Positions 6,128 to 64,000 of a stretch of 64,000 bases of DNA are shown here, piece after piece. Both the position numbers and the translations under genes were made by a program. The stretch covers positions 673,724-737,723 of the forward strand of contig NZ_JAQNDL010000002.1 of assembly GCF_028368995.1 (NCBI RefSeq), in the 5' to 3' direction. This stretch comes from Nannocystis bainbridge. Its GTDB lineage: Bacteria; Myxococcota_A; Polyangia; Nannocystales; Nannocystaceae. The number at the start of each line of letters is the position of its first letter. The stretch's first letter is position 1. The notes beneath the pieces are model-generated. The model was not told where the DNA came from. It ran no database searches and saw only the letters and a program-made list of their open reading frames with translations.

Positions 6128-6139
6128 GACCCTTCCGCC

Positions 6140-6538
6140 ATGTCCCAAGAGACAGCCCCCCAGAACCTCACCGCCCGGGTCCTCCGGCTCGTCGGCTACC
6201 TCACCGATCCGAAGAGCGGCCCCGGCAAGTGGTGGATGCGCTTCGAGGGCGCCTCGACCGGCGTCATGACCCGCCTCGCCACCAGCCCGCGCTATCTGCG
6301 GCTGGCCGGCCGCGGGCTACAAAAGATGTTCCACCTCCACCGCGACCTCGTCGACCTCACCGAGGAGGTCCTGCACTTCTGGCGCGTGCCCACGCTCGGC
6401 GACCTCGACGAGGTGCGGGCCCAGCTGCGGCGCGCCGAGGACCGGCTCGAGATCACCACCAGCCAGCTCGAGCTCGCGCTCGAGCTGCTGGGCAAGCTGC
6501 AGGCCGAGCTGGCTCGCTCGACGCGGGGGGCCGCGTGA
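6140..6538 (+). CDS. PhaE-like / PHA granule-associated small protein (short)
   Basis: 132 aa immediately upstream of and overlapping (GTGA) class III phaC; C-terminal coiled-coil LPTxxDLDEVRAQLRRAEDRL resembles PhaE/phasin motif; much shorter than canonical PhaE so identity tentative. Confidence 0.4.
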   Translation: MSQETAPQNLTARVLRLVGYLTDPKSGPGKWWMRFEGASTGVMTRLATSPRYLRLAGRGLQKMFHLHRDLVDLTEEVLHFWRVPTLGDLDEVRAQLRRAEDRLEITTSQLELALELLGKLQAELARSTRGAA

Positions 6539-33666: not shown

Positions 33667-36066
33667 ATGAAAGAGATCGAGATACGGATCGGGCGCGGCG
33701 CCAGGGCTACGCGGTTCGCCGCGGTCCTGGTCAAATCGGGCAGCACGGCCACCCGCAGCTTCGAGCGGTCGCGCAGCGGGGCGGGCGTGCAGGTCCACCT
33801 CACCGGCGAGCGCGACTACCACGTGGCCCTCGTCGCCGAGCCCGCGGCGGCCGACAAGGCGCTGCTGCGCGCGACCGTCGGGCAGAAGCTCCTGCTCGAT
33901 TTCCCCGGGCGTCGGGCCGTCCGCCAGCGCCTCGCCGGCCTCGCGGGACATGGCCTTCAGGACAGGTCAGAGCCGAAGGCTGCGGCGCTCGACCTCACCG
34001 CTGGCATCCACGGCGCAGCCCCGCTGTTCCTCCTGAGCAGCGGCGAGCTGGCCGCGGACGCCGACGGACCTGCCCCGAAGGACATGTCGTCGCTGCCGGT
34101 GTTCGTCGCCGCCGCGCGCTGGATCTCGTCGCGGCGGACCTCGAGCTTCGAGTGCCTGTTCCCGCCGAGCGCGTTCTTCCCCGACGAGCCGCTGCGCACC
34201 GAGCGATTGACGCCGACGCAGGCCAGGGCGCTGCTGCGGCAGGTCGATGGCGTGTTGACGGAGGCCGCCGCGAGCGGGCCGAACGCGGCGGTCGACGACG
34301 CCGTGCAGCTGCGCTCGGCCGCGCTGACGGTGCTGTCGCACGTGGTCGCCACCGTGCTCAAGGATCCCGAATTCCGCGCGGCCGCCGACGCTGCGGCCGA
34401 ACGCATCTTCCGGCTGATCGACGAGGAGACCGGTCCTGGCGGACGCGGCGAGCTGCGGGCGCACGCCATCTCGCTGCTGTCGCTGCGCGGCCCGGCCCTG
34501 CGCCCCGAACAACAGGCGCGCGCGCAGGCGCTGCTGCGCTCGCTGTCGCGGCAGGCCCCGCCGTACGCCGCGCTGACCGGGCCGTGGCGGTTCGCGCTGG
34601 CCTCGGCGCCCGAGTTCTTCCCCGGCGAGGTCGAGCTGCTGCAGACCAAGTTCGGCTTCACCAAGGTGGCCGCGCCCGAGGGCACGCCCGCGTCGCCGAA
34701 CCCGTGGGGCGACGGCTACGTGGTCCTGCGGGCGCCGTTCGTCGGCAAGGGCGGGCGCGAGTTCATGGTGTTCGCCCGCTCGGCCGCGCCGCGCGACGAG
34801 AACTTCGAGATGTCGCAGGAGTTCTTCACCGGCCTGCTGGTCAGCCGCCACGCCAACCTCGGCGCCTACGACATGCGCGCGTCGGCGATCCAGACCCCGC
34901 AGGTCGGCTACAAGCTGATGATGAACTGCCAGTGCGCCGGGCTGACCACGCGGTTCGCCATCGCCCGCATGTTCCCCGACGCCGACATCTTCTCGAGCTG
35001 GGACTCGACCTACTTCCGCACCGGCGAGGGCGACAAGGTGGTGGCGTCCGAGGGCATCGACTGCTTCGTGGCGATCCTGCGCGGCCTCGCGGAGGAGGAG
35101 GACTTCGCCGCGATCGACCGGCGGATCCGCAAGGCCCAGTGGCACCACCGCCAGAGCCGCACGCCCGACTTCGTGCAGTTCATCGGCCCGGCCCACCCGC
35201 TGGTGGTGGCGCGTTACCAGGACATCAACCGCGACGGCAAGGCCGACTATTACGACGGCTTCCTCGACTTCCGGCTGGTCGAGATCGCCGAGAGCCTCAA
35301 GGACTCGGCGATCCCGCGCGACCCCGGGGCGTCGCCGTCGCAGATCGGCGGCGAGGCGGCGCGCGGGCTCGGGTGGGCCGCCGGCAGCCTCAATCGAGTC
35401 ACGCAGTACTCTGAACTTTGGGACAGCTTGCCCGGGCAGGCCGAGCTCCTGTACGCGTTCCGGGCCGGCGGCTTCTTCAGCGGCGCCGAACCACCGCGCG
35501 ACGTGCCGGCCGGCAAGGGCCCGCGCGGCGAGCTCGGGCGGCTGCCGGCGGTGGTCCGCTACGTGCGCGAGCCGGCCGGCGACGCGCTCACGGCCGACGT
35601 GCTGTTCCACAGCCACCTCAGCCACAGCGCGCAGGAGCTCAAGCGCCTGCTCGTGGCCGCCGAGGCGTGGTGGCGGGCGATCGACCTCGGCTACCTGGCC
35701 GACACCACGCCGCTCGACACGCCCCTGGGCCAGCGCGCCGGCCTGCTGCTGCTGCTCGCGGGGCTGCTCGAGTTCCCCGCTGATCAGAACTTCATCGACG
35801 GGCTGTGGGAGATGGCGCTCGACATGCTGCACCTGCCGCGGCTGTCCCGCTCGCTGATCCGCCGCTGCAACAGCGACGAGGACCACAATGACGGCAACTA
35901 CTACGGGTCGGTCCGCGGCATCCGCGAGCTGGTCGGCACGGCCGAGGCGCCCGGCGGGGTGCTCAAGCCGGCCAACCCCGAGGCGTACGAGGAGCTGGCC
36001 GCGGCCGATCCGGCGATCGGCCGCGCCCGCCCGCTCGGCGAGGTCGCCCAGGCCGCGGGGCCGTGA
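33667..36066 (+). CDS. large hypothetical protein (about 800 aa), no signal peptide
   Basis: Long ORF with coherent GC3 codon bias; start MKEIEIRIGRG at 33667; contains possible Cys/His motif NCQCAGLTTRFAIARMF ... WHHRQ; no confident domain assignment. Confidence 0.5.
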   Translation: MKEIEIRIGRGARATRFAAVLVKSGSTATRSFERSRSGAGVQVHLTGERDYHVALVAEPAAADKALLRATVGQKLLLDFPGRRAVRQRLAGLAGHGLQDRSEPKAAALDLTAGIHGAAPLFLLSSGELAADADGPAPKDMSSLPVFVAAARWISSRRTSSFECLFPPSAFFPDEPLRTERLTPTQARALLRQVDGVLTEAAASGPNAAVDDAVQLRSAALTVLSHVVATVLKDPEFRAAADAAAERIFRLIDEETGPGGRGELRAHAISLLSLRGPALRPEQQARAQALLRSLSRQAPPYAALTGPWRFALASAPEFFPGEVELLQTKFGFTKVAAPEGTPASPNPWGDGYVVLRAPFVGKGGREFMVFARSAAPRDENFEMSQEFFTGLLVSRHANLGAYDMRASAIQTPQVGYKLMMNCQCAGLTTRFAIARMFPDADIFSSWDSTYFRTGEGDKVVASEGIDCFVAILRGLAEEEDFAAIDRRIRKAQWHHRQSRTPDFVQFIGPAHPLVVARYQDINRDGKADYYDGFLDFRLVEIAESLKDSAIPRDPGASPSQIGGEAARGLGWAAGSLNRVTQYSELWDSLPGQAELLYAFRAGGFFSGAEPPRDVPAGKGPRGELGRLPAVVRYVREPAGDALTADVLFHSHLSHSAQELKRLLVAAEAWWRAIDLGYLADTTPLDTPLGQRAGLLLLLAGLLEFPADQNFIDGLWEMALDMLHLPRLSRSLIRRCNSDEDHNDGNYYGSVRGIRELVGTAEAPGGVLKPANPEAYEELAAADPAIGRARPLGEVAQAAGP

Positions 36067-36106: not shown

Positions 36107-36418
36107 ATGCACCGCCTCACGCCCGGGCTCGCCGGGTTCGCCCTGCTCCTCGTCGCCTGCGCCGGCTCGGGGCCTCCGCCTCAACCTGTCCCGGAGGACA
36201 GCCTCCGCGCGGCCGCCCCCGAGGACGCGGGCGGCTCGTGCTCGGCCAGCGCCGAGTGCCCCGGTGCCGCGCCGGTCCGCTGCACCGGCAAGGGCGAGGG
36301 CCGCTGCCGCGGCGAGGACGGCGTCGGCTGCCGCTTCGAGCCGCTCACGGGCCCGCCGCAGACCCGCTGCTGCGACGGCTCCGACAGCTGCACGTTCACG
36401 CCGCTGTCGGGCCCCTGA
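36107..36418 (+). CDS. small Cys-rich lipoprotein, hypothetical
   Basis: aaaaaggaggg RBS then ATG 36107; MHRLTPGLAGFALLLVACAG signal peptide with lipobox LVAC; 10 Cys in about 80 mature residues. Confidence 0.5.
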   Translation: MHRLTPGLAGFALLLVACAGSGPPPQPVPEDSLRAAAPEDAGGSCSASAECPGAAPVRCTGKGEGRCRGEDGVGCRFEPLTGPPQTRCCDGSDSCTFTPLSGP

Positions 36419-36442: not shown

Positions 36443-36500
36443 TGTCTGAATCGACATGTTCTTCAAGGCATGTCTCGGAAGCCATGTTCTCGCTCGCGCT
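36443..36500. repeat. short array (about 3-4 units) of the 14-bp GGACATGTCC-family repeat
   Basis: acatgttcttcaag / gcatgtctcggaag / ccatgttctcgctc. Confidence 0.6.
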
Positions 36501-36550
36501 GACCAGGGCGAGCGCGCTTCGAGGTCCGGTGACCAGATGCTCGTTCGGAG

Positions 36551-36694
36551 TCTGTCTGTAAGGACATGCTCTTTCGAGCATGTCCCGCGGCCAGGGATCA
36601 GCCGGCCGAGCTGTCGTCTGGGTCTGTCCGTAAGGACATGCTCTTTCGAGCATGTCCACCGGCCAAGAAACAGCCGGCCGAGCGGTTTTTAAGT
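36551..36694. repeat. two direct copies of an about 72-bp repeat, each containing the perfect palindrome GGACATGCTC-TTTC-GAGCATGTCC
   Basis: tctgtctgtaaggacatgctctttcgagcatgtcccgcggccagggatcagccggccgagc vs tctgtccgtaaggacatgctctttcgagcatgtccaccggccaagaaacagccggccgagc; lies at convergent junction. Confidence 0.8.
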
Positions 36695-38642: not shown

Positions 38643-38666
38643 GGTCGCGTCGCTGCGGGTGGGAAG

Positions 38667-38750
38667 GGCATGGCCTCGCGGCCATGCCCTTTCGTACATG
38701 TCCTCGAGGGCATGTTTTTATGGGCATGGCCTTTGGCTCATGCTTCGCCG
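38667..38750. repeat. array of 6 units of the 14-bp repeat
   Basis: ggcatggcctcgcg / gccatgccctttcg / tacatgtcctcgag / ggcatgtttttatg / ggcatggcctttgg / ctcatgcttcgccg. Confidence 0.85.
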
Positions 38751-38852
38751 AGCCCGCCGCGGACCCGGCCCGCGACCGCGGTCACGGCTCCTCCGCCCGA
38801 GCGTCCGCGGGGCGAGGCGGCCCTCGCACCGGCCCTCGCACCTGGCCTGCGG

Positions 38853-38908
38853 GTCATGCCCTCACGGCCATGTCCTCAAAGACATGGCCGCAGCGACATG
38901 TCCTCACG
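38853..38908. repeat. array of 4 units of the 14-bp repeat overlapping the stop codon of the large minus-strand gene
   Basis: gtcatgccctcacg / gccatgtcctcaaa / gacatggccgcagc / gacatgtcctcacg; the last unit supplies the TGA (38904-38906, minus strand). Confidence 0.8.
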
Positions 38909-41900
38909 GACCGGTGGTGAAGTCCTCGCGGTTGCTGTCCCACCAGGCCTGCCAGGCGCGCAGCGCCAGGTCCCGGCTGCGGCGGTCGCCCTCGGCGGGG
39001 AACGGGATCCGCTGGCCGGTGATCCGCGCCAGCTCGTCGGCGGCCCACCGGCGCACGGCCTCGTCGCGGTGACGCAGGCCGTCGATGACCCACTCGATGC
39101 GCGGCTCCTGGCCGTGCTCGGCGTACCAGGCCCGCCAGCGCTGGGCGCGGTAGCCGTGGTGCTTGGCGGTGATCGAGCACAGCGCCTCGAGCGCGGCCTC
39201 GCGGACGTGCTTGTCGCGCACGGCCAGCAGGTCGATGAGGCGCGGCACGGCCAGGGTGTCGCGCAAGGTGCCGGCGGCCTCGACCGCGAGCAGCTGCCGG
39301 TCGTGGTCCTCGCTCTCGAGATCGCCGCGGATCTCCGCGGCCACGGCGGCGAAGTCGGGCACGCGGCTGTACGACTCGAGCACGCGGGTGGCGATCAGGC
39401 GCACGTCGGGGTCGGGGTCGAACGCCAGCTCGGCGAGCGGCCGCAGGCACCGCGGGTCGCGCAGCTCCTGGAACAGGAACGCGGCGTAGAAGCGGATCTG
39501 CGGCCGCACGCTGGCGAACAGCGCCAGCACGTGGGGGCTGACGGCGTGCCCGAGCTCGACGCAGGCGCGCAGCAGCGGGCCGTGGGCGCTCGGCGGCGGG
39601 AAGGTGGTCGCGTTGGCGAGGTCGATGGGGCCGGGGAAGCGCGCGGCGAGGCGAGCCAGGCCGCGCTCGTCGAGCGCCCGCAGGCGCGAGACGCTGGTCC
39701 ATTCGGCCGGGTTCTGCAGGAAGGCCTCGAGCACGGCGTCGATCTCGCGCTCGTCGAGCGCCGTCGTCGGGCCCGCTTCGGCCGGCCTGTCGGCGGGCGC
39801 CGCGTCGGTCGGCGGCGCGGCGGCTGCAGACGCGGTCGCGGCGGCCTCGGTCGCGTCGTCGCGGGGGGTGTCCTCCGCGACATGCCCTTCGGGACCGGTC
39901 TCGGAGGACATGTCCTCGGGGACATGACCGGAAGTGCTGGAGGAGGCGGCCGGGACGTCGTCGGCCTCGCGCACCAGCCGCGGCATGGTCAGGACGTCGG
40001 ACGAGGCCTCCGGGCGCGGCTCGTGCTTGGCGCGGCGCCGGCCGCTGCGCGGGCCGATCAGGGTGGTCGGCATCGACAGCGTCGGGCCGCCCTCGAGCTC
40101 GTCGGGGCCGCTGCGCCGGGCCATCGGGTGCGGCGTGGCGGTGAGGCCGCTCGAGCGCCGCAGCGTCTTCGGGATCACCAGCACCGGCTCCTCCGCGCTC
40201 GGCTCGGCGGGACGGCGGCGCCTCACGGCCCCGGGGGTGCCGGGCGGCGCGACGAGGTTGGGGATCAGCGGCCCGGATGCGCCCGGTTCGACCAGCGGCG
40301 GGATGTCGAGCACGGTCTTGGCGTCGGGCGCGGCGAGGCTCTCGACCAACAGCGGCGCGTGCGTCAGCGGCGGCGAGAGGTCGAGGATCGTCGGCGTGTC
40401 GGAGGCGGCGCGCGGCCAATCGTCGAACTCGGGGTCGGGCAGGCCGCCCCGCGCGGTCTCGTCGAGCATCACCCGCGGCGCGCCGGGCAGCGTCGAGGCC
40501 GGGTCGTGATCGACCCGGGCGTCGGCGGCGGACCGCAGCGCGCTGGCGACCGGCAGCGGATCCTCGATGCCCGAGGGCTCGGCGGTGGCGATCCAGCCGG
40601 GCATGTCGGCCCGGGCAGCCGCGGGCGGCCCGGAGGTGTCCGAACGACCATGTCCGAAGGTGCCTGGCCGATCGGTCAGGTCGATGGTGACGGTCGGGAC
40701 CGGCGGGCGCGTGAACATCGCCGCGAAGCGAGCCACGAGCGGGCTGTCGGGGCCGTTCTCGGGGCCGAGCGGCACCGGCACCGGCGCCAGGCCGAGGCCG
40801 GGGCCGTCGCGCCGCGGGGGCGGGCTGTCGGCCTCGTGATCGTCGGTGAGGTCTTCGTAGTCCTGCTCGTCCGCGCTCGGTTCGGGCTCGTCGGCGCTCG
40901 GCTGGGCCCGCACCACCGCGGAGCTCTCGGCGCGGACCGGCAGCGGGGTGACGGTCGACGGATCGTCGCGGCGGATCGGGTTCTTCAGGGTGATGATGCC
41001 GCGGCCACGGCTGCTGCTGCTGCTGCTGCTGCTGCCGCTGCTGCGCCCGCGCGAGCGGCTGGCCGCGCTGCTGCTGTCCCCGAAGCCAGGTTCATCGGTC
41101 AGCCGGGCGGGGCTAGGCGGCGGCTCGTCCGGAGTCTCCGGCGCTGCGGCGGCGACCGCGGGCTCGGGCTCGGGCTCCGGGATGTCCTCGGGGACAGGTG
41201 GCACGGCGGCCGGCGCGTCGGCCTCGTCTTCGCTGACGATCGGGTGCGGGCGGACGGACGGGCGCGCGCGGTCGGCTGCTCCGGCGCCGACGGTGCCGCC
41301 GGGCACCACCCAGCCGAGCAGACGCAGCAGGGCCTCGAGGCTCTGGCGGGCGGTGTCGCACAGCTCGCGCAGGACGGTGCGCTCGCGCGGATCGAAGGCG
41401 ACGCCGGCGCGGTCGACGTAGAGCATCAGGACCGTGCGACCGCCGGCGAGCACCGGCTCGAAGATGCAGGGGATCCCGAGCGGCTGGCCGACGGCGAACG
41501 ACAGGCTCGGCTCGATCAGGAGGTGCAGCGGGCCCTGGCCGGACACCGCGCGATCGAGCAGGCCGCCCTCGGGCAGCGGGATGACGAGGCCCTCGGACAG
41601 CCTGAGCGCGCTGCCGGGGGCCGCCAGCACGCGCAGGCCCTCGCGCTTGACGCCGAACAGGGCCACGCGCGGGGCGACCAGCGAGGCGGCCTTGACCAGC
41701 GCCTCGGTGATCCGGTCGCGCTCGCGCGCGGTCGCCAGCGCGGCCCGGGCGGCGTCGAGCCGCTGGGCCAGGGTCATGACCATCGCCTGCGGGAGGGCCG
41801 GGGGCTTCTTGGTCGAGGACTCGATCAACGCCTCGTCGGCGCCGACGACCGCGGCTTCGGAAGCGCTGGTCGAAGGGACAGGTGCGGCGTCCGCCGGCTC

Positions 41901-44123
41901 GTTGGATCTGGCCGAAGAGACAGGTAAGGCCGAGCCCGCCGGCGCGGGAGAGCTGGCCGAAGCGACAGGCGGAGCTTCTTCCAGCGCGGTGGAGCTGGTC
42001 GAAGAGACAGGTGAGGCCGAGCTCGCCGGTGCGGGAGAGCTGGTCGAAGAGACAGGCGGAGCGGCTTCCGACGGGCGAGTGGCGCTGTCGTTCGCGCCGG
42101 GAGCGAGGTTGTCGGGCGGCGTGGTGGCGGCGCCGACGGGGATGCCGACCAGGGTGCGGCGGTCCGCGAGACCGGAGGAGTCCCTCGCGCGGGGCGTGGG
42201 CCGGGTCGTGGGCGCCGGCGGGAGGATGATGAGCGGCGTATCGGGGGCGATCGCCATCCCGGCGAACGAGCCGCCGCCGTCGTCGAACCCACGCGGGGGA
42301 ACGAGCGGCGCGTCAGGGGCGACGGGCACGGGGTCGAAGCTCGACGGCCGGGTCGGCGACGGTTGCGGGGCGGGGTTCGCGGTGATGCTCGCCGAATCGG
42401 TCTCGGGCGCGCTGTCGTAGGCGGCCGTCTGACGGCTGGCAGCGGGGGTGGGGGCGGGGTCGTCGGTGAGGCTGTCCTCGAGGCCAGGCTGCTGCGCGTG
42501 CCGTGAGGCCCGGGCCGCGTCGGCTGCGAACGCCTCGGTGAGGGCGCTGGGCTCGCCCTTGTTCGCGGGGCGCGCGTCGGGGATGGTCGCGGCGGGCCTG
42601 TCCTCGGGGACAGCTGCGGCGAGGTCCGAGGACCTGTCCGGAGAGGCAGGTGCCGAACCCGACGGCTCGCCGGCCGCGGACGGCGAGGTCGCGGGGACAG
42701 GCTGAGGCAGATCGACCCGGGCCGTCGAGCCTTCGGCGGCAGGACGCGACGAATCGACGGAGATGTCCTCGGGGACAGGCGCGAGCGACTCGTCGCGCGC
42801 GGTCGCGCCGTTGCCGGCTCCGCGCAGCGAGCCCGCGTCCGCAGGGCGGGGCGAAGCGGCCGTCGCGGAACCACTGGTAGCAGGGCTCCCGGCGAGCCCG
42901 GAGGCGCGGGCGGCGGTGGTCGGACCGGACATCGCGGCCGGTCGGGGGCCGGCGTTTTGCCTGTCCGCGGGGACAGGTACGTCGGTCCCTCGCGCCTCGG
43001 TCAGCGGCGCCGCGGCGTCCTGGGTCGCGCCGAGCGCACGTGCATCGGCGGCGTCGCGCGGCCTGTCCGCTGGGACAGGCGCATCCGCGGCGCGGAGTTC
43101 GGGCGTCGCTCCGGCCGAGGTGTCGGCGGGGTTGTCCGCAAGGACAGGCGCTTCGGGCGAGGCGTCGGCGGGGCTGTCCGCAAGGACAGGCGCTTCGGGC
43201 GAGGCCTCGGCGGGGCTGTCCGCAAGGACAGGCGATTGGGCCGAGGCGTCGGCGGGGCTGTCCGCAAGGACAGGCGCCGTCGCCTCGTGAGCGTCGCGGG
43301 CCCCGGAGGCGTTCGCGGACTCGTCCGTCGCGCTCGCGTCGTCGGAGCCACCGATCTCACCCGGCGCGACCTCATCCTCGGCCATGTCCGAAGAGACAGG
43401 CCGCTCGTCGCTCGTCGACAAGTCGGGCGTCGCAGCCCCGGCGCCCGTCGAGCTGTCCGCGGGGACAGGTTCTCCGGCCGTCGGCGCATCGGCGACGGAC
43501 CGGACCGAAGAGCCAGGCGATTCGACGCCCGCCGGCTTGGCGGCGGCTGCGTCCCCGCGCTCGGCCTGCCTGTCCTCAAGGACATGTGCACTCGTCAGCT
43601 CGCTCGCCGGCCCGTGGGTGGGGACGAGGCTGATCGTGAGCGAGGAGGTGCGCATCGCCTCGAGATAGTCGAGCAGGATCAGCGCGTAGCGGGGCGCGAG
43701 GATCGAGCCGGTCCGCTCGGCCGCGATCTTGGCCAGGCAGCACTCGGGCGCGACCACCGGGTAGAAGCCGCGGACCATGCGATAAAGCTGGCCGAGCTTG
43801 GCGTCGGGCAGGTCGGGGTGGACGGCGACGATCAGGCGACCGTCCTCCTGCACGAGCGGCATGGCCCAGCCGATGTCGACCAGGTCGCGCGGGACGTGCT
43901 CCCACGGGCGGGCCGGCCCGCGCTCGAGCAGCCGCACCGGCGCGCCCGGGAGGCCGCACGCGCTCTGCAGCAGGTGATCGAGCTGCACCGGGGTCATCAG
44001 CCCGAGCTCGAGGATCGCGGTGTCGAGACTGCCGCCGGCTTGTTGCTGCCGCCGGGTCGCGGCCTCGAGATCGGCGCGCGACAGCGGACCGTTGGCTTCG
44101 AGGTGGCGCAGGAGGAGGCTCAC
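38904..44123 (-). CDS. large multidomain protein: N-terminal T2SS-E N-terminal (GspE-N/MshEN-like) domain, long acidic Pro/Ala/Ser-rich repeat region, C-terminal HEAT-like repeats
   Basis: GTG 44123 overlaps RDD stop as GTGA. N-terminal about 140 aa resemble the T2SSE_N fold. The centre is low complexity with 14-aa (42-nt) PVLADSPAEASPEA repeats and PVPED motifs. C-terminal HEAT-like repeats VREAALEALCSI, VRRWAADELARI. Opposite-strand ORFs inside are artifacts. Confidence 0.6.
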   Translation of the reverse strand: MSLLLRHLEANGPLSRADLEAATRRQQQAGGSLDTAILELGLMTPVQLDHLLQSACGLPGAPVRLLERGPARPWEHVPRDLVDIGWAMPLVQEDGRLIVAVHPDLPDAKLGQLYRMVRGFYPVVAPECCLAKIAAERTGSILAPRYALILLDYLEAMRTSSLTISLVPTHGPASELTSAHVLEDRQAERGDAAAAKPAGVESPGSSVRSVADAPTAGEPVPADSSTGAGAATPDLSTSDERPVSSDMAEDEVAPGEIGGSDDASATDESANASGARDAHEATAPVLADSPADASAQSPVLADSPAEASPEAPVLADSPADASPEAPVLADNPADTSAGATPELRAADAPVPADRPRDAADARALGATQDAAAPLTEARGTDVPVPADRQNAGPRPAAMSGPTTAARASGLAGSPATSGSATAASPRPADAGSLRGAGNGATARDESLAPVPEDISVDSSRPAAEGSTARVDLPQPVPATSPSAAGEPSGSAPASPDRSSDLAAAVPEDRPAATIPDARPANKGEPSALTEAFAADAARASRHAQQPGLEDSLTDDPAPTPAASRQTAAYDSAPETDSASITANPAPQPSPTRPSSFDPVPVAPDAPLVPPRGFDDGGGSFAGMAIAPDTPLIILPPAPTTRPTPRARDSSGLADRRTLVGIPVGAATTPPDNLAPGANDSATRPSEAAPPVSSTSSPAPASSASPVSSTSSTALEEAPPVASASSPAPAGSALPVSSARSNEPADAAPVPSTSASEAAVVGADEALIESSTKKPPALPQAMVMTLAQRLDAARAALATARERDRITEALVKAASLVAPRVALFGVKREGLRVLAAPGSALRLSEGLVIPLPEGGLLDRAVSGQGPLHLLIEPSLSFAVGQPLGIPCIFEPVLAGGRTVLMLYVDRAGVAFDPRERTVLRELCDTARQSLEALLRLLGWVVPGGTVGAGAADRARPSVRPHPIVSEDEADAPAAVPPVPEDIPEPEPEPAVAAAAPETPDEPPPSPARLTDEPGFGDSSSAASRSRGRSSGSSSSSSSSRGRGIITLKNPIRRDDPSTVTPLPVRAESSAVVRAQPSADEPEPSADEQDYEDLTDDHEADSPPPRRDGPGLGLAPVPVPLGPENGPDSPLVARFAAMFTRPPVPTVTIDLTDRPGTFGHGRSDTSGPPAAARADMPGWIATAEPSGIEDPLPVASALRSAADARVDHDPASTLPGAPRVMLDETARGGLPDPEFDDWPRAASDTPTILDLSPPLTHAPLLVESLAAPDAKTVLDIPPLVEPGASGPLIPNLVAPPGTPGAVRRRRPAEPSAEEPVLVIPKTLRRSSGLTATPHPMARRSGPDELEGGPTLSMPTTLIGPRSGRRRAKHEPRPEASSDVLTMPRLVREADDVPAASSSTSGHVPEDMSSETGPEGHVAEDTPRDDATEAAATASAAAAPPTDAAPADRPAEAGPTTALDEREIDAVLEAFLQNPAEWTSVSRLRALDERGLARLAARFPGPIDLANATTFPPPSAHGPLLRACVELGHAVSPHVLALFASVRPQIRFYAAFLFQELRDPRCLRPLAELAFDPDPDVRLIATRVLESYSRVPDFAAVAAEIRGDLESEDHDRQLLAVEAAGTLRDTLAVPRLIDLLAVRDKHVREAALEALCSITAKHHGYRAQRWRAWYAEHGQEPRIEWVIDGLRHRDEAVRRWAADELARITGQRIPFPAEGDRRSRDLALRAWQAWWDSNREDFTTGP

Positions 44124-44701
44124 TGTTCCCTCACGACGTAGGTGCCCGTCAGATAGTCGTGGAAGGCCCGCTTCTCGCGGTCGAAGACCATCCACAGCGA
44201 GCCGAGGCCGCCGGGCACCAGGCCGACGGCGGTGCCCGCGAATCGCACGGTGGCGCGCACCGGACCGACCTTGCCGCCGGCGCGGTGGACCACGCGGATG
44301 CCCGTGAGCTTCTGCCCGGGTGTCCTCCCGGACAGGGCGATGAACAGCACGAAGTAAATCGCGACCATCACCAGCAGGGGCGCGAGCCACACGAGGATCT
44401 CGAGCGGCTCGACGGTGAGGAGCTGCAACAGGCCGGCCCACGAGAAGCCGCCGCGCACCGGGCTCGCCTCGCCGAGCACGCGCTGCAGGCCGAGGTGCAG
44501 CGGGCCCGCGGTGACCAGCAAGATCGCGGCGTCGACCACCGCGGCGGCGAAGCGGCGCCAGAAGCCGGCGACGCGCACCGGCACCAGCGCTTGCCCGCAC
44601 GCGGGGCACGTCGGTCGCCCGTCATTGACGAGGCCGATGTCCAGCGCCGCGTCGCAGCTCGGACACGGGGCGGGGCGCTCCTTGCGAGACCAAAACGCCA
44701 T
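44120..44701 (-). CDS. RDD family membrane protein with N-terminal zinc-ribbon
   Basis: MAFWSRKERPAPCPSCDAAL...CPACGQ zinc ribbon; then RDD-type TM helices and conserved FDREKRAFHDYLTGTYVV C-terminus. Confidence 0.7.
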   Translation of the reverse strand: MAFWSRKERPAPCPSCDAALDIGLVNDGRPTCPACGQALVPVRVAGFWRRFAAAVVDAAILLVTAGPLHLGLQRVLGEASPVRGGFSWAGLLQLLTVEPLEILVWLAPLLVMVAIYFVLFIALSGRTPGQKLTGIRVVHRAGGKVGPVRATVRFAGTAVGLVPGGLGSLWMVFDREKRAFHDYLTGTYVVREQ

Positions 44702-48119: not shown

Positions 48120-48139
48120 CGGTTCCATATTAAAGAGAG

Positions 48140-48237
48140 GACATGTTCCGAGGGGCATGTCCTGGCGGGCATGTTCGAATGGGCATGTTTTATCAGCCAT
48201 GTCTTGAAGGGCATGCTTATTGCGACATGTTCCTCGC
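48140..48237. repeat. array of 7 units of the 14-bp repeat
   Basis: gacatgttccgagg / ggcatgtcctggcg / ggcatgttcgaatg / ggcatgttttatca / gccatgtcttgaag / ggcatgcttattgc / gacatgttcctcgc; starts 21 bp after meaB stop. Confidence 0.9.
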
Positions 48238-50061: not shown

Positions 50062-50160
50062 CGGGACATGTCCGGGAGAGCATGTCCGATGGGTCATGCT
50101 CTCGCGGACATGCACCGATGGACATGCCTGAGAGGACATGTCCGGAGCGACATGCCTCGC
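50062..50160. repeat. array of 7 units of the 14-bp repeat
   Basis: gacatgtccgggag / agcatgtccgatgg / gtcatgctctcgcg / gacatgcaccgatg / gacatgcctgagag / gacatgtccggagc / gacatgcctcgcta; fills convergent gap between DUF1963 gene and MATE gene. Confidence 0.9.
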
Positions 50161-50169: not shown

Positions 50170-51585
50170 TTACGCCGCCGTGCCGCGGCCGGTGAGGTCG
50201 ATGCGGCGCCAGGCGCCGGAGCGGAAGCGCAGCACCATCGCCGCCGCCAGCGCCACCATGTACACCACCATGCTCCACGTCGCGGCCGCGGCGCCGCCGT
50301 CCCAGGTGAACACGGTCAGCCAGGCCAGCGGCAGCCAGATCACCCAGGCGAGGGAGATCCGCAGCACCAGCGGCCAGGCGGTGTCGCCGGCGGCGCGCAG
50401 GGCCTCGTTCACGGTGATGACGGTGGCGTCGAGCAGCTGCCACACCGCGCTGATCGCCAGCAGCTGGGCCCCGAGCTCGACGACCGCGCGCGACGACTCG
50501 ACCTCGTCGCGCGCGAACACCATCATCAGCGGCACCGGGATGGCGAAGTAGAGCAGGCCGACCACGCCTTGCCAGGACGCCGCGACCGCGAAGGTGCGCA
50601 GCACGATCCGCGGCACGTGGTCGTGGTGGCCGGCGCCGATCGCCTGGCCGACCAGCACCGCGCCGGCCGAGCCGAGCCCGAACGCCGGCATGAACGAGAC
50701 CGAGTTGACGGCCGTCACCGCCATCAGCGCCGCGACCGCGACGGTCCCGAGCTCGGCGACCACGAGGTTGATGAAGATCAAAAAGGCGGCGAACTCGAGG
50801 AACCAGTTGAGGCCGTTGGGCAGGCCGAACCGCATCATCCGCGCGAACTCGCGGACGCCCAGGCGGCCGTCCTGTCTGTCCGAAAGGACAGGTACGGGGT
50901 GCTCGACGGGGCCGACGGTCGCGGGGTCGATGGTCCGCTGGTGGCGCGCGCGCCAGAACGCGTGGCAGCAGACGGCGAAGCCGGCGACGCTGGCGAGCAC
51001 GCTGGCCCACGCGGCGCCCTGGACCCCGAGCGCGGGGGCGCCGAGGTTGCCGTAGATCAGCACCCAGTTGAGGGCGAGGTTGACGACCATCGCCGTCAGG
51101 CTGGCGCGCATGGCCACCCGGGTGTCGCCGAGGCCGGCGAACCAGTTGCCGAGCGCCTCGGTGCCGACGACCACGCCGGTGCTGAGCATGCGGATCGCCA
51201 TGTACTCGCCCATCACCTCGCGCACCGCCGGCGCGTGGCCGGTGAGCGCGAGGACCGGCGCGATCGCGGGGATGATGGGCAGGGCGGCGAGCATCGCCAG
51301 GCCGGCCAGCGCCAGGCCGTACCAGGCGTAGCGGCGGGCGCTGGCGAGGTCGCCCTGACCGGCGAGCTGGGCCGCGTAGCTCTGGACGATGAACGTGATG
51401 CCCATCGGCAGGATGAGGATCCCGAGCGCGTTCATGGCCCCGGTGGTGGCCGCCGCGAGCGCGTCGTCGCCGAGCGGGGCGACCATCGCGGCGTCGCTGA
51501 AGCTGATCACCGACTGCGCCGAACGTGCGAGCACGATCGGCCAGGCGAGGGTGATGAGCGCGCGGAGTCCAGGGACCGGGGCCAT
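50170..51585 (-). CDS. MATE family efflux transporter
   Basis: Start MAPVPGLRALITLAWP (51585); 12 predicted TM segments, MATE N- and C-lobe pattern; upstream part of ORF 50170..52638 is an artifact overlapping pgi. Confidence 0.8.
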   Translation of the reverse strand: MAPVPGLRALITLAWPIVLARSAQSVISFSDAAMVAPLGDDALAAATTGAMNALGILILPMGITFIVQSYAAQLAGQGDLASARRYAWYGLALAGLAMLAALPIIPAIAPVLALTGHAPAVREVMGEYMAIRMLSTGVVVGTEALGNWFAGLGDTRVAMRASLTAMVVNLALNWVLIYGNLGAPALGVQGAAWASVLASVAGFAVCCHAFWRARHQRTIDPATVGPVEHPVPVLSDRQDGRLGVREFARMMRFGLPNGLNWFLEFAAFLIFINLVVAELGTVAVAALMAVTAVNSVSFMPAFGLGSAGAVLVGQAIGAGHHDHVPRIVLRTFAVAASWQGVVGLLYFAIPVPLMMVFARDEVESSRAVVELGAQLLAISAVWQLLDATVITVNEALRAAGDTAWPLVLRISLAWVIWLPLAWLTVFTWDGGAAAATWSMVVYMVALAAAMVLRFRSGAWRRIDLTGRGTAA

Positions 51586-51629: not shown

Positions 51630-53216
51630 TCAGGTCGCGCGCGCGAACTGAGCCGTCGCCGGATCGACGAGGCTGTCGACGCTCACGCGCCCGTTGCTGG
51701 CGAGGTGTCGCAGCACTTGCCACACGGCCACCGGGTCGGTGCCGAGCGCGTCGGCGAGCTCGCGGCAGGTCTTGCCTCCGGAGCCGGGCAGCGCCGCCAG
51801 CACCGCCGTCTGCAGCACGAGCACGCCCTGGGCGGCCTTTTTGCCGGCCTCGACGCCGGGCTGGTGGTACGCGTTGACGTCGATGAGCTCGGCGTAGATC
51901 CCGACGGCGCGCTCGAACAGCGCGATCAAGGCGCCGACCGAGGTCGCGCTGACCTCGCGCAGGACGATCGTCGCGCTGGCCCGACCGCGCTCGGCGAGGG
52001 CGGCGCGGGTGCCCTGATAGAAGCCGTCGAGGCAGTCGCCCGAGCTCACCTGCGGCTCGACCTCGACGGCGCCGGGGCCGTTGGCCGGGCCGTCGAGATC
52101 GCGGAGCACCCGCACGAACACGGCGAAGAAGTTGTGGAGGCCGTCGCGCAGCTGCTGCACGTAGGCGTGCTGGTCGGTCGAGCCCTTGTTGCCGTAGACG
52201 GCGAGGCCCTGCCACACCTCGCGCCCCTGGCGATCGAGGCGCTTGCCGAGCGACTCCATCACGAGCTGCTGCAGGTAGCGCGACATCAGCGACAGGCGAT
52301 CCTTGTATGGCAAAATGACCATGTCCCGAAGGCCATGTCCGGAGCCCTGCTGATGCCACATCCAGGCCAGCAGGGCGGCGGGGTTGCGCCGCGCCGGGCG
52401 CACGCGGCCCCACTGGTCCATGGCCGCGGCGCCGCGCAGGAGGGCGCGCCAGTCGTGGCCGAGCAAGGCGGCGGGCAGGAGGCCGACGGGCGAGAGGACG
52501 CTGGTGCGGCCGCCGACCCAGTCCCACATCGGGAAGCGGGCGAGCCAGCCCTCGCGCTCGGCGAGCTGATCGAGGGTGCTGCCCTCGCTGGTGATGGCGA
52601 TCGCCCGCTTCGGGAATTCGATGGCCTGGCGGGCGCAAGCGGCCCGCAGCTCGAGCATGCCGTTACGCGTCTCGACGGTGGAGCCCGACTTGGAGACGAC
52701 GAGGATCAGGGTCTGCGCGAGCGTACCTGTCTCTGCGAGCAGGTCGGCGATGCCGGCGGGATCGGTGTTGTCGAGCACGCGCAGGCTGAAGCCGGGGCCG
52801 CTGTCGCGCGCGGTGAGGGCAGCCTCGAGCAGCTGCGGGCCGAGAGCGCTGCCGCCGATCCCGACGAGGATGGCGCCGGTGAACGGGCGGCCGTCGTCGG
52901 CGAGGATCTGGCCGCCGCGCACGCCCTCGGCGAAGGCTTCGATCTGGTTCCAGCTGGCCTGGATGGCCTGGGAGAGCGCGGGATCGGGGGCGCGCTCGGG
53001 GTCGCGGAGCCAGTAGTGGCCGACCATGCGCCCCTCGTCGACGTTGGCGACGGCGCCGCCCTCGATCCGGTGAAGAGCGTCGAGCGCAGCCTCCAGCCGC
53101 GCGGCATTGGCGGTCAAGGCGGGCTCGTCGAGCTGGGCGTCGGCGAAGTCGAGCTCGATGTCGAGTTCGCCACGGTAAAGGCGCCAGGTGAGGTAGTGGT
53201 CGAGTGGGTCGGCCAT
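51630..53216 (-). CDS. pgi: glucose-6-phosphate isomerase
   Basis: Start MADPLDHYL (53216); PGI signatures ILVGIGGSALGP, VVSKSGSTVET, GGRTSVLSPVG; contains an internal in-frame copy of the repeat at 52318..52346 (GSGHGLRDM). Confidence 0.85.
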   Translation of the reverse strand: MADPLDHYLTWRLYRGELDIELDFADAQLDEPALTANAARLEAALDALHRIEGGAVANVDEGRMVGHYWLRDPERAPDPALSQAIQASWNQIEAFAEGVRGGQILADDGRPFTGAILVGIGGSALGPQLLEAALTARDSGPGFSLRVLDNTDPAGIADLLAETGTLAQTLILVVSKSGSTVETRNGMLELRAACARQAIEFPKRAIAITSEGSTLDQLAEREGWLARFPMWDWVGGRTSVLSPVGLLPAALLGHDWRALLRGAAAMDQWGRVRPARRNPAALLAWMWHQQGSGHGLRDMVILPYKDRLSLMSRYLQQLVMESLGKRLDRQGREVWQGLAVYGNKGSTDQHAYVQQLRDGLHNFFAVFVRVLRDLDGPANGPGAVEVEPQVSSGDCLDGFYQGTRAALAERGRASATIVLREVSATSVGALIALFERAVGIYAELIDVNAYHQPGVEAGKKAAQGVLVLQTAVLAALPGSGGKTCRELADALGTDPVAVWQVLRHLASNGRVSVDSLVDPATAQFARAT

Positions 53217-53830
53217 GTCGGGGCGCTTTATAGCAGCGTCGGGGGCGGCTGGGCTCGTGCTCGGCGGGGCTGTTCGCTTGCTCGGTGGGCTGAGGTCGGT
53301 CGGAGCGCTGCAGAGCGGCTGGGTTCGCGAACTGCCGGTGCCGCCTCGCGGGCGGTCAGGGACGCGGGTCGGCGCCCAGTCCTCGCGGATGCTCCCTCCT
53401 TCGTCGGGCGCATCTCGCTGCGGATGGGCGCCGACCCGCGTCCCCGACCGCTGCACGGCTGGCCTCGTGGGTGGCTCGAGCGCCGGTCGTCGGCTTCGAC
53501 GTGGGGCCTGGACTCCGCGGTGTGGCTTTCCGTGGGATGGCCGGCCGGGGCCGGCCGGCCATCCCGCGGACCTCTGGGCGAACTATCCGGCGCTCGTCGA
53601 GGCGCGACGGGCCTGCGCGACGCGAGGGTCGTCTGCGTCGCGGCGGACCTCCGGTGGCGGGGCTCGTTCGCGAGAGATCGTCGGTTGCGGGGCTCAACTT
53701 CGCTGCGATACGCGTCCGCGATGCAGAGGCCCGTCCGCGTTGCGGAGCCCATCAGCGGCGTGGGGGCTCGTCGCGCTACGTCGGGGAGGGGCGCTCGCCG
53801 GCTGCGCTCGCTGTGAGAGGTGGCCTCATG

Positions 53831-53914
53831 TACATGTCCTTTGGAGAATGTTCCAAGGGACATGTCTGCGAGGACATGGTGGAAAGAGCATGCTCAAAAG
53901 AGCATGTCCTCGGG
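53831..53914. repeat. array of 6 units of the 14-bp repeat
   Basis: tacatgtcctttgg / agaatgttccaagg / gacatgtctgcgag / gacatggtggaaag / agcatgctcaaaag / agcatgtcctcggg; directly downstream of UDPGP gene stop. Confidence 0.9.
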
Positions 53915-55333: not shown

Positions 55334-56428
55334 TCAGAGGCGACCGACGGAGCGCGCCCAGGCGACGGTGTGCTCGAGGCCCTTGGCGAGCGGCCACTGC
55401 GGCGCGTACTCGAGCTCGCGCACGGCCCGGCTGTCGTCGCACCACCAGCCGGGAGCCATGCTGCCGCGCGCCTTGTCGAGGGTCAGCGCGGGGGCCTTGC
55501 CGCGCAGGCGACCGATGGCGTGGTTGATGCCGGCGACGGTCCACACGGCGACCTGCGGCATCGGCAGGGCGAGGGCGCGGCGACCGAGCGCGGCGGCGGC
55601 GGCCCGCCCGAAGTCGACGACGGTGCTGCGCTGGCCGTCGGTCAGGTAGTAGATGCCGGCGCCGGTGGGGTGCGAGCTGTCCTCGGGGACATGGTCGAAG
55701 GGGCTGCCGTGATCGGCGAGCACGTGGTCGCCCTGGCGGGGGATCGGGATGCCGCGAGCGCCGGCGCGGGCGATGCCGTCGACGAGGTCGAAGGCGTGGA
55801 TGAAGGACATCCACGTGGATCGCATGCCGGGCTGGGCGATCACCCCGAACTTGGCGGAGCGGATCATCTGCAGCATGTCGAGGTCGCGCGGGCCGTAGAC
55901 GGCGGGCGGACGCACGATCACGGCCTCGACGTCGCCGGCGCGCGCGGCCGCGAAGATCAGCCGCTCGCCGTCGAGCTTGCTGTCGCCGTAGAGCGTGTAG
56001 CCGACGCGCGGGGCGTGGTGCTCGCGCCGCGCGACCTCGGGGTGCGAGGGGCCGGCGGCCATCAGCGAGGAGACGTAGACGAGCCGCCGCGGCCGTCGTG
56101 GGGCCTGACGGATCGCCGCGAGCACGTTGTCGACCCCGGCGGCGTTCGCCAGCGCGAACTGCTCGCGCGTGAACGCGGCGGTCAGACCGGCCACGTGATA
56201 GACGACCTCGGCGCCGTCGAACGCGGCGGCCATGGCTTCGACGTCCGTCAGCGAGGCGCGCACGAGCTCGGGTCGCGCGTCTGTCCGCGCGAGCGCGTCG
56301 GCGAGGTTGTCGAGGTTGGCGCTGGCGCGGACCATCGCTCGCACCGCGTCGCCGCCCGCGAGCAAGCGATCGACGAGGTGGCTGCCGATGAACCCGTTGG
56401 CCCCGGTGACGACGACCTTCGTGGGCAC
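55334..56428 (-). CDS. NAD-dependent epimerase/dehydratase
   Basis: VVVTGANGFIGSHLV Rossmann motif, YxxxK (YGDSK); internal repeat-derived segment at 55678..55700 (HVPEDSS). Confidence 0.75.
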   Translation of the reverse strand: MPTKVVVTGANGFIGSHLVDRLLAGGDAVRAMVRASANLDNLADALARTDARPELVRASLTDVEAMAAAFDGAEVVYHVAGLTAAFTREQFALANAAGVDNVLAAIRQAPRRPRRLVYVSSLMAAGPSHPEVARREHHAPRVGYTLYGDSKLDGERLIFAAARAGDVEAVIVRPPAVYGPRDLDMLQMIRSAKFGVIAQPGMRSTWMSFIHAFDLVDGIARAGARGIPIPRQGDHVLADHGSPFDHVPEDSSHPTGAGIYYLTDGQRSTVVDFGRAAAAALGRRALALPMPQVAVWTVAGINHAIGRLRGKAPALTLDKARGSMAPGWWCDDSRAVRELEYAPQWPLAKGLEHTVAWARSVGRL

Positions 56429-63136: not shown

Positions 63137-63892
63137 ATGCGCGTCCGCTGCGAAGAGGGCGAGCTGATCCGGCGACTGTTCCTCAGGACAGGTCCTGGAG
63201 GACATGTCGCTTTGGACACCGACGGGATCGCCGCGCTGGCCGAGGCGGTCGAGCGCGCGGTCACCTTCCCGGCGCGCGCGCTGGTGATCGCCAGCGAGGG
63301 CCCGGAGTTCTGCGCAGGCATGGACCTGGCGGCGGCGCTGAAGACCCCGCCGGCGCAGATGCGGGCGGCGATGGAGCGGTTCGCCGGCTGCCTCGAGCTG
63401 CTGGCGAGCGCGCCGGTGGTGACGATCGCGGTGGTCGGCGGCCCGGCCAGCGGCGGCGGCGTCGGTCTGGCGGCCGCCTGCGATCTGGTGGTGGCGGCAA
63501 AGACGGCCACGTTCGCGCTGCCGGAGCTGCGCTACGGGCTGGTGCCGGCGGTCATCTTGCCGGCCCTCGAGGCCCGGATCGGCGCGCGGCGGATCCGGAG
63601 GTTAGCGCTCACCGGTGAGCTGGTGTCGGCGGCCCAGGCCGAGCCGTGGGGCCTCGTCGACGTCGTCACCGACGATCCCGACGCGGCCCTGCGCGGGCTC
63701 CTGCGATCGCTCTTGCGGGCGCGGCCGCAGGCGGTGGCGACCCTCAAGCGCATCACCGGGCCGGCGGGGCAGGGCGGGGTGGCCCAGACCGCGGCCGACC
63801 TCGAGGACCCCGAGCTGCGCGCGGCGCTGGCGGCCCTGCTGGCCGACGGGCAGGCGCCGCCGTGGTTCGCCAGGCTGAAAGGACAGGAATGA
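63137..63892 (+). CDS. enoyl-CoA hydratase/isomerase (crotonase) family, ECH1-like dehydratase of HMGS cassette
   Basis: Crotonase oxyanion motifs FCAGMDL and GGPASGGG; first about 25 codons coincide with a copy of the palindromic repeat so true start may be downstream. Confidence 0.6.
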   Translation: MRVRCEEGELIRRLFLRTGPGGHVALDTDGIAALAEAVERAVTFPARALVIASEGPEFCAGMDLAAALKTPPAQMRAAMERFAGCLELLASAPVVTIAVVGGPASGGGVGLAAACDLVVAAKTATFALPELRYGLVPAVILPALEARIGARRIRRLALTGELVSAAQAEPWGLVDVVTDDPDAALRGLLRSLLRARPQAVATLKRITGPAGQGGVAQTAADLEDPELRAALAALLADGQAPPWFARLKGQE

Positions 63893-64000
63893 ACGCGCAT
63901 GTCCCTACGGACAGCCTCGTCGAGGTGACGCTCGAGCGCGACGGCGTGGCGGTGCTGACGATGCGAGACGCCGCCGGCAAGAACGCGTTCAGCCGGGCCT
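63890..64000 (+). CDS. second enoyl-CoA hydratase family protein (ECH2-like), 5' fragment
   Basis: ATGA overlap with upstream stop; MNAHVPTDSLVEVTLERDGVAVLTMRDAAGKNAFSRA is a typical crotonase N-terminus; runs off window. Confidence 0.45.

Follow-up and report, generated by a model that had tools for sequence, protein, structure and literature searches.

HIP1, the highly iterated palindrome of cyanobacteria, is conserved between genomes within open reading frames (ORFs), which has been taken as selection on the DNA itself (PMC5861425). Inside ORFs, uptake signal sequences (USS) and DNA uptake sequences (DUS) build up through substitutions where conservation is poor, in favored frames, and leave protein length unchanged (PMC2817400); a role in termination and mRNA stabilization has been proposed for repetitive extragenic palindromic (REP) elements (PMC3733652). 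Rickettsia palindromic elements (RPEs) occupy coding and non-coding DNA; R. felis has 728, 85 of them within ORFs (PMC1166351). Here, we examine a 14-bp palindromic word in 64,000 nt of the myxobacterium Nannocystis bainbridge (NZ_JAQNDL010000002.1, positions 673,724–737,723, forward strand; hereafter, the window), which stacks into arrays past stop codons and recurs inside genes, among them pgi. An earlier note on this DNA had listed in-ORF copies and read them as an element able to invade or extend coding regions without truncating them. Every listed coordinate carries the sequence and peptide given, which confirms the observation; the interpretation finds partial support. We consider it probable that the in-ORF copies are embedded, selectively retained instances of the post-stop word.

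The word within genes and past stop codons

The repeat unit is the palindrome TGTCC-N4-GGACA. Head-to-tail units read ...GGACATGTCC..., with CATG recurring every 14 bp; in array units, CATG is 98% invariant and the 14-bp phase is strict. The window (GC content about 71%) contains 54 copies of GGACATG versus 7 expected, and CATG-N10-CATG, which has exactly this spacing, occurs as 34 pairs versus 0–5 at every other spacing from 4 to 27 bp. Nearly all pairs (31/34) are intergenic, and repeat density is about tenfold greater in intergenic DNA (7.8 kb in the window) than in ORFs (about 51 kb outside one giant ORF). As the earlier note stated, the GGACATGTCC core is free of stop codons in any frame and three units equal 42 nt. 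The CATG tetranucleotide as such is slightly depleted in ORFs (202 vs about 225 in synonymous shuffles) and threefold denser in intergenic DNA.

Genes were mapped with a self-trained codon likelihood; for key genes, the map was compared with Pfam and with the genes called on orthologous contigs. All chance levels for coding DNA kept each protein sequence and its codon usage fixed. Under a synonymous-codon shuffle, 0.4 TGTCC-N4-GGACA hairpins are expected within ORFs and 18 are present, so the in-ORF copies reported earlier are real. The giant ORF accounts for 13 of the 18; the rest of the coding DNA holds about 6 hairpins and 5 strong two-unit sites, the latter scoring at least 17 bits with a position weight matrix (PWM) trained on intergenic units, where 0.025 are expected. 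The heptamer GGACATG shows a smaller excess in ORFs (23 vs 16). That the DNA match exceeds what protein sequence and codon usage yield supports the embedded-word reading. Among 79 other bacterial loci (1,239 kb), we found 15 CATG pairs and 2 hairpins, and the subset with GC above 66% (330 kb) contained one pair and no hairpin. The family is also present in N. radixulma, N. punicea, and N. pusilla, and the word has so far been seen only in Nannocystis. Rfam covariance models gave no match at the gathering threshold across the whole window. In the literature searched, GGACATGTCC appeared only as the consensus p53 half-site, a match that we take as coincidence; nothing was found there on Nannocystis repeats or on this family.

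Codon choice sets the sites apart from their surroundings. In motif windows, 30% of codons are rare ones ending in A or T, as in gga cat GGC ctt of pgi and the ECH1 run aca ggt cct gga gga cat; in the same genes, the 150-nt flanks give 3.4%. The comparison species are close: the window Pgi is 90% identical to that of N. radixulma, and other window proteins share 87–93% identity with their N. punicea and N. pusilla counterparts. In N. radixulma, 17 of 24 rare codons in the sites are retained versus 9 of 29 in the 150-nt flanks (p=0.006), and in N. pusilla the corresponding fractions are 16/22 and 7/23 (p=0.007). Where the amino acid is the same, the rare codon is kept at 15/16 site positions in N. 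radixulma and 11/11 in N. pusilla, whereas the gene-wide rates are 34% and 29%, respectively (Fisher p about 2e-6 each). Since the rare codons of the sites are kept in sister species, their retention points to constraint on the DNA or RNA sequence.

The word is also tied to gene ends. With the giant ORF excluded, the site clusters number 28, and 13 of them begin no more than 60 nt past a stop codon; 2000 random placements gave 1.85 on average and never more than 7. Eighteen clusters lie within 200 nt past a stop versus 4.7 expected. Seven of the 17 in-ORF clusters fall within the first 100 nt of their gene (binomial p=6e-4). The 5'-end copies in gspJ, gspK, a 132-aa ORF, and ECH2 follow the upstream stop by 26, 47, 12, and 3 nt, respectively, and can best be understood as post-stop copies within operons lacking spacers. 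Intergenic arrays come and go between species, while in-ORF sites persist. Folded as RNA, the arrays form strong structures, and the sense strand was the more stable in three of the four arrays that follow a single gene; positions 48125–48240, for example, fold at -49.7 kcal/mol in the sense and -34.0 kcal/mol in the antisense orientation, with G-U pairs allowed and a U-run following.

Conserved proteins, gene starts, and disordered regions

The pgi site illustrates how the word sits in a conserved enzyme. On the minus strand, 52318–52346 read GGC TCC GGA CAT GGC CTT CGG GAC ATG, encoding GSGHGLRDM. The PWM score of 25.1 bits lies inside the range of true array units and was matched in 0 of 5000 resamplings of the gene's own protein sequence. 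The earlier note regarded these residues as a possible lineage-specific insertion and named shared residues in orthologues lacking the repeat as the finding that would overturn the idea. That is what the alignment shows: 80 orthologues from repeat-free phyla, Planctomycetota and Verrucomicrobiota among them as well as other myxobacteria, span the site with zero gaps and follow the consensus G-x-G-[RK]-G-x-[KR]-D-M-V-[IV]-LPYKDR. The second CATG belongs to the GAC ATG of the conserved D-M, and GAC ATG is used by most orthologues. Only GGA CAT (in most others GGC CGC or AAG) and CTT are particular to Nannocystis, and the site is identical in N. radixulma.

Other conserved proteins behave alike. 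In the epimerase, the peptide HVPEDSS is confirmed; the surrounding DHVPEDxSHP loop is constant in length within one residue across 120 homologues, and the peptide is kept down to about 55% identity. The ECH1 site encodes RTGPGGHV, and its rare-codon run is largely kept in N. punicea and N. pusilla with no insertion. The first 28 ECH1 homologues (58–98% identity) begin M-R-V, apart from one M-F-V and one M-R-I, and align without gaps through G-P-x-G-[HQR]-V; more distant homologues start M-[RDH]-[VL], and their loop is mostly of the same length. This conserved beginning indicates that ATG 63137 is the start and that nothing was inserted. At site a of the 799-aa hypothetical protein, the DNA nearly equals that of the pgi site and the peptide is GHGLQDRS; it lies in a variable-length loop with no indel fitting the motif. 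Site b aligns without gaps, and its rare gga and cct are kept even in L087, a more divergent relative (75% identity for this protein). In L087, the PilM-like gene spells the same G-H as GGG CAC, both common codons; three core species have gga cat, and a synonymous change thus produced GGACATG. MatE has equal length in N. radixulma, where the hairpin is degenerate; the RDD-family hairpin is identical at 23 of 24 nt in N. pusilla and N. radixulma; and the lipoprotein site, including its rare CCT, is kept in N. radixulma and absent in L087. A Nannocystis locus from a metagenome-assembled genome (L086, 63% identity) is not syntenic and was used for density only. Further motif sites lie at 7774, 15688, and 3775.

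At gene starts, the word may contribute the initiation codon. The gspJ site encodes NMSSRTA, and ATG 25908, which lies inside CATGTCC, would give the prepilin leader MSSRTARQRG|LSL; such leaders are normally short, as MSSRTARQRG would be, and Pfam detects the N_methyl motif in GspJ. Nine unconserved codons separate this ATG from the upstream ATG 25878; MSSRTARQRG|LSL is conserved, and the L087 protein opens directly with MTRRTAHQRG. Comparison of the two beginnings therefore makes the motif ATG 25908 the most likely start. A single ACC-to-TCC change completes TGTCC here. The gspK site encodes ERHVRKVRSG; its start lies at a conserved position (GTG; in N. radixulma, ATG), and where L087 has CCTGTCCCCAAGGCCAG (P-V-P-K-A-S) the window has CATGTCCGTAAGGTCAG (H-V-R-K-V-R), such that the DNA word is kept and the peptide changed. 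No motif-sized length difference separates the Nannocystis species at gspJ, gspK, MatE, or the PilM-like gene. ECH2 starts at an ATGA overlap (63889); the motif ATG at 63899 was rejected as its start, since that frame stops after nine codons and the overlap fits the orthologue calls. The doubt cast earlier on annotated starts hence lapses for ECH1 and gspK and survives for gspJ, whose start is ambiguous with the motif ATG favored. The copies in gspJ and in the 132-aa ORF sit on the start codon itself; the "phaE-like" label given to the latter lacks Pfam support, as Pfam returned no family match for the ORF at 6140.

A further copy, CATGTCC-gtag-AGACAGCC at 3775–3791, overlaps the last codons and stop of the ORF at 2907–3785 and shares the asymmetric form CATGTCC-N4-RGACAGCC with the start copies of gspJ, the 132-aa ORF, and ECH2. 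At 63019–63030, the TGA stop of the HMG-CoA synthase gene falls in the loop of the hairpin-like CCTGTCC-tgag-GGACC.

Gain of units and extension of ORFs are confined to disordered regions, namely, the linkers of the giant protein and the tail of a DNA methyltransferase. In the giant protein (38904–44123/44609, minus strand), an N-terminal domain that is conserved across species is followed by a conserved central domain and by C-terminal HEAT repeats. In the window, its disordered linkers carry 13 hairpin units; the N. pusilla and N. radixulma proteins have 9 and 6 there, respectively, at non-orthologous positions, and all 28 use one frame, x-V-[PLS]-x-D-x. A 42-bp tandem of four copies (43107–43277) lies in the N-terminal linker, and the tandem period is 42 nt in the window and 45–48 nt in N. 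pusilla, while protein lengths are 1739, 1756, and 1673 aa in the window, N. pusilla, and N. radixulma, respectively. In the C-terminal linker, the five-unit array at 39864–39932 is read in three frames in turn, bearing out the prediction that an array can be translated, and is partly conserved in three species. Copy-number differences between the ORFs of close relatives occur in disordered regions only and look like tandem duplications of 42–48 nt. The linkers of this protein (38904–44609, minus strand, 1739–1901 aa) are rich in Ala, Pro, Ser, and Asp and hypervariable; further features are a poly-Ser run encoded by (GCT)x11.7 at 41010–41044 and 45/87-bp tandem repeats at 41858–42069.

The N6/N4 DNA methyltransferase is encoded at 14311–15429. 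Its homologues end near query residue 295–300, and most lack the 72-aa tail, in agreement with the proposal that the repeat residues here are lineage-specific; the copies are TGTCY/AGACA variants of the word. In the nearest homologue, the tail is longer and the xL[ST]xE[TP]A units are more numerous; another near homologue reads array-like sequence in a different frame. A 48-bp tandem repeat (14328–14509, 3.8 copies), which encodes repeated peptide units, lies in the 5' part of the ORF upstream of the catalytic domain and leaves the true start of the methyltransferase uncertain.

Taken over all sites, the claim that an element invades or extends coding DNA fails at pgi and the other conserved proteins, the alignments showing no site-specific insertion at the epimerase, ECH1, the 799-aa ORF, gspJ, or gspK either, and stands for disordered linkers and tails. 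Likewise, the copies are inside ORFs as described, yet "in-frame" has no fixed meaning, for all three frames are used. The word in conserved proteins is apparently a product of substitution and codon choice rather than insertion.

Table 1. Occurrences of the 14-bp word and its arrays in the window (positions counted from the first letter of the window)
Feature	Position	Strand	Description
Intergenic array, 14-bp CATG phase	1765..1871		37 nt past + strand gene stop
132-aa ORF start ("phaE-like")	6139..6155	+	CATGTCC-caag-AGACAG on ATG 6140; 12 nt past AMP-binding enzyme stop
Methyltransferase C-terminal tail	15292..15362	+	CTGTCT-ctcg-AGACAG and CTGTCC-cgag-AGACAG, reading DLSLETA, DLSRETA
gspJ start site	25904..25927	+	CATGTCC-tcgc-GGACAGCC; 26 nt past upstream gene stop
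gspK N-terminal site, codons 12–19	26650..26673	+	aga cat GTC cgt AAG GTC AGG; 47 nt past gspJ stop
PilM-like gene site	29018..29041	+	gga cat GAC TGG ACG GCC ATG TCG
799-aa conserved hypothetical (earlier 820-aa ORF), site a	33946..33969	+	gga cat GGC ctt CAG GAC AGG = GHGLQDR
799-aa protein, site b	34066..34089	+	gga cct GCC CCG AAG GAC ATG TCG; peptide PKDMSS
Lipoprotein linker after lipobox Cys	36183..36206	+	cct GTC CCG GAG GAC AGC = P-V-P-E-D-S
Intergenic arrays and 72-bp duplicated composite hairpin	36452..36657		between convergent genes
Two intergenic arrays	38666..38903		flanked by convergent genes, whose stops are 29 nt and 5 nt away
Giant-protein C-terminal linker array	39864..39932	-	five units translated as HVPEDMSSETGPEGHVAEDT, three frames in turn
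Giant-protein N-terminal disordered linker	42599..43585	-	eleven hairpin units, all frame x-V-[PLS]-x-D-x
RDD-family gene hairpin	44316..44339	-	GTGTCC-tccc-GGACAG, L-S-G-R-T
Seven-CATG array	48139..48232		25 nt past + strand gene stop; absent in syntenic N. radixulma spacer
Seven-CATG array	50064..50157		between convergent DUF1963 gene and MatE; absent in N. radixulma
MatE central-loop hairpin	50872..50895	-	CTGTCC-gaaa-GGACAG, P-V-L-S-D-R
pgi in-ORF site	52317..52340	-	two CATG 14 nt apart, GGA CAT GGC CTT CGG GAC ATG = G-H-G-L-R-D-M
Array	53816..53909		24 nt past UDPGP stop; present at same place in N. punicea, absent in N. radixulma
Epimerase hairpin	55673..55696	-	CTGTCC-tcgg-GGACATG; cat GTC CCC GAG GAC AGC = H-V-P-E-D-S
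ECH1 codons 17–24	63186..63209	+	rare-codon run aca ggt cct gga gga cat GTC gct; sole common codon GTC
ECH2 codons 3–10	63895..63918	+	CAT GTC CCT ACG GAC AGC = H-V-P-T-D-S; 3 nt past ECH1 stop

Several further features were observed near these sites. Between the convergent genes at 36550–36683 lies a 72-bp direct repeat (1.9 copies, 90% identical); each copy comprises the hairpin GGACATGCTC-TTTC-GAGCATGTCC and a second GC-rich stem (GGCCGGCTG...), and the region closes in a T-run near 36686. In N. radixulma (L002 9400–9545 and 14860–15000), the spacer upstream of pgi and the one downstream of the gene at 47172–48119 contain direct repeats of the species' own, about 50 nt long (cgagcgccggatacgcccgaggacgacgcccagcacatcgtcgcgtcac). 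At other places in these two spacers, the window has CATG arrays that are missing from N. radixulma; the two species thus carry different repeat families there. At its right end (56800–64000), the window has a beta-branching-type cassette. The N. punicea equivalent (L082 3700–13500) encodes an aminotransferase, an acyltransferase, a FabA-like protein, a ketosynthase, a ketoreductase, an HMG-CoA synthase, and two ECH proteins, and then continues with two short-chain dehydrogenases/reductases and an acyl carrier protein. A turn of GC skew near 32 kb was considered as a replication signal and rejected, as it tracks gene orientation.

Origin and retention of the in-gene copies

The reading that we prefer would run as follows. 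The main habitat of the word is the first few tens of nucleotides past stop codons, where units stack into arrays that may fold as hairpins at the transcript 3' end and so play a role like that of REP elements and the bacterial interspersed mosaic elements (BIMEs) built from them, at the mRNA end, as terminator or as stabilizer. In tight operons without a spacer, a post-stop copy would overlap the first codons of the next gene, as proposed for gspJ, gspK, the 132-aa ORF, and ECH2. In conserved proteins (Pgi, the epimerase, ECH1, the PilM-like protein, the 799-aa protein, and MatE), the word would have been written into tolerant loops by base substitutions and the choice of rare A/T-ending codons, with length unchanged. 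Its later retention in sister species implies constraint or drive on the DNA or RNA sequence itself; we take the constraint as shown, and candidates for its agent are a hairpin in the RNA, a protein that binds the sequence specifically, and methylation of CATG. Multiplication of units and extension of the ORF are restricted to disordered linkers and tails, in steps that are always a multiple of 3 nt.

Several points weigh against this reading. Overall nucleotide identity is the same in motif windows (89.0%) as in flanks (88.7%), meaning that the constraint is visible only at rare codons, where the word conflicts with codon bias; with the overall comparison uninformative, we relied on the rare-codon test, whose samples are small (about 24 rare codons) and whose species comparisons share ancestry and are not independent. 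For one array past a single gene, the antisense strand gives the better fold. Six Nannocystis sequences showed no compensatory covariation in the stem, with the one-sided states C/A (14) and T/G (10) outnumbering T/A (2), and this dominance of one-sided changes weakens the case for a pure hairpin function. Few arrays fit a canonical terminator: a scan of 36–55.5 kb returned 4 sites versus 3.0 expected, of which only two touch arrays. It is also not obvious what a hairpin of 5–7 bp would do midway through a gene. We called the genes ourselves by codon likelihood, with the Pfam and orthologue checks covering key genes only, and the ancestral state was inferred from outgroups for pgi only.

Of the competing accounts, chance is the easiest to set aside. 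It would make the in-gene copies a by-product of amino-acid content and codon usage at 71% GC, and it can draw on the roughly one CATG-N10-CATG pair expected in the window, on the conserved residues that fix half of the pgi site (GAC ATG), and on a GGACATG count in ORFs of only 23 vs 16. The same nulls leave 18 hairpins facing 0.4 and five sites of at least 17 bits facing 0.025, the pgi score never arose in its 5000 resamplings, rare codons are ninefold denser in the sites and retained across species, and the pattern is almost missing from other bacteria. Coincidence is therefore hardly credible and is refuted for the whole set, though single weak sites (34066, 15688) could still be due to it. 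A selfish palindromic element that inserts in-frame in the manner of Rickettsia RPEs, survives as a stop-free core, and adds peptide linkers is a more serious contender, fitting the intergenic arrays that come and go between sister species, the giant-protein linkers, whose 13, 9, and 6 units do not occupy orthologous positions, the lineage-specific methyltransferase tail whose unit number and frame vary in its nearest homologues, and the absence of stop codons from the core. We nonetheless judge it unlikely: motif-sized length differences are lacking in pgi (80 orthologues), the epimerase (120), ECH1, and the 799-aa ORF, as they are among Nannocystis at gspJ, gspK, MatE, and the PilM-like gene; the encoded residues are partly universal, as with D-M in Pgi; and the linker expansions look like tandem duplications of 42–48 nt, not insertions of a 14-nt unit. 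Going by these alignments, insertion is already refuted for the conserved enzymes.

Selection could instead act on a short linear peptide motif (PVPED/HVPED), leaving the palindrome a by-product of GC-rich codons. The single frame shared by all 28 giant-protein hairpins in three species and the conservation of the epimerase DHVPED to about 55% identity are in keeping with this idea, and V-P-E-D written as GTC CCS GAG GAC yields GTCC-N4-GGAC automatically (synonymous-shuffle expectation, 11.5). The full palindrome, however, demands that GTC be preceded by a rare codon ending in T and GAC be followed by an A, which is where 18 hairpins exceed the 0.4 expected; one DNA word encodes unrelated peptides in three frames (GHGLRDM, MSSRTA, TGPGGHV), is kept in gspK while the peptide changes, was reached in the PilM-like gene by a synonymous change, and forms non-coding arrays as well. 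We regard peptide selection as quite improbable. A purely DNA-level system of the HIP1 type, in which the CATG core is a binding or methylation site for a chromosome-organizing or epigenetic factor, arrays are multi-site platforms, and RNA plays no part, would explain the near-invariant CATG (98%) in its strict 14-bp phase and the absence of compensatory covariation, as expected of half-sites read independently. Its 5-N4-5 layout resembles the operators of dimeric regulators. The conservation within ORFs also mirrors that of HIP1 (PMC5861425). Such a system does not predict the tie to stop codons or the folding advantage of the sense strand, with its G-U pairs and U-runs; the binding or methylation is itself putative, and in-ORF density is far below that reported for HIP1. 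We think a purely DNA-level role improbable, and retention of an embedded post-stop word remains the reading that we favor.

A bolder form of that reading can be put forward only tentatively. The sequence would be a hitherto undescribed "cistron-end word" that marks gene ends and is read by a dedicated factor, acting on RNA ends, binding DNA, or methylating CATG. Selection on the word would be strong enough to prevail over codon bias and remodel loops in housekeeping enzymes. Combining REP-like arrays with HIP1-like embedded sites, the word could also seed in-frame minisatellites in disordered linkers.

Relation to described repeat systems

If the constraint is real, this would be a second clear case, after HIP1, of a palindromic word selected inside genes against codon bias, and, unlike HIP1, one with an obvious positional logic, that of gene ends. 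For annotation, repeat-like sequence in a conserved enzyme need not imply an insertion or a mis-annotated start. An ORF that enters a nearly stop-free array may be lengthened, spuriously or genuinely, as in the methyltransferase tail, and the ATG inside the word can act as a start codon, most likely so in gspJ.

The nearest analogues of the word are HIP1, USS, and REP, and not the Rickettsia RPE. RPEs are about 100–150 bp and, like the Nannocystis word, are palindromic repeats found in coding and non-coding DNA, but they are clear in-frame insertions relative to orthologues, whereas the conserved enzymes of Nannocystis show no change in length; insertion relative to element-free orthologues was found at none of the conserved-protein sites aligned. 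The USS of Pasteurellaceae and the DUS of Neisseria share with the word a build-up by substitution at tolerant positions. Inverted USS/DUS pairs sit after genes as terminators. Uptake sequences differ in being non-palindromic, linked to competence, and, in coding DNA, biased to preferred codons, where the Nannocystis word forces rare ones, and they form no 14-bp phased arrays.

REP elements and BIMEs resemble the word in placing palindromic units just past stops and between convergent genes and in varying in presence among relatives. Their extragenic, 3'-end location is matched by the 31 of 34 CATG pairs that are intergenic, with a minority of copies in ORFs. REPs are imperfect palindromes of 20–40 nt with a GTAG/CGTC head, alternate in orientation within BIMEs, are extragenic by definition, and are linked to REP-associated tyrosine transposases (RAYTs); the Nannocystis unit is a 14-bp perfect palindrome in head-to-tail phase that occurs also in ORFs, and none of the REP unit features (20–40 nt length, GTAG/CGTC head, alternating orientation) was found in the window units. 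HIP1 (GCGATCGC) is similar in being a short palindrome, enriched in one lineage, present in ORFs without indels, and conserved there. Conservation beyond neutral expectation within ORFs is likewise found here, with 71–73% of site rare codons kept versus about 30% in flanks. HIP1, which has known methylases, is an 8-mer that occurs about once per gene, is mostly genic, and shows neither phased tandem arrays nor a tie to stop codons. The about 51 kb of ORFs outside the giant ORF show no such abundance; unlike HIP1, the Nannocystis word spans 14 bp with a free N4 spacer and is about tenfold denser between genes than within them.

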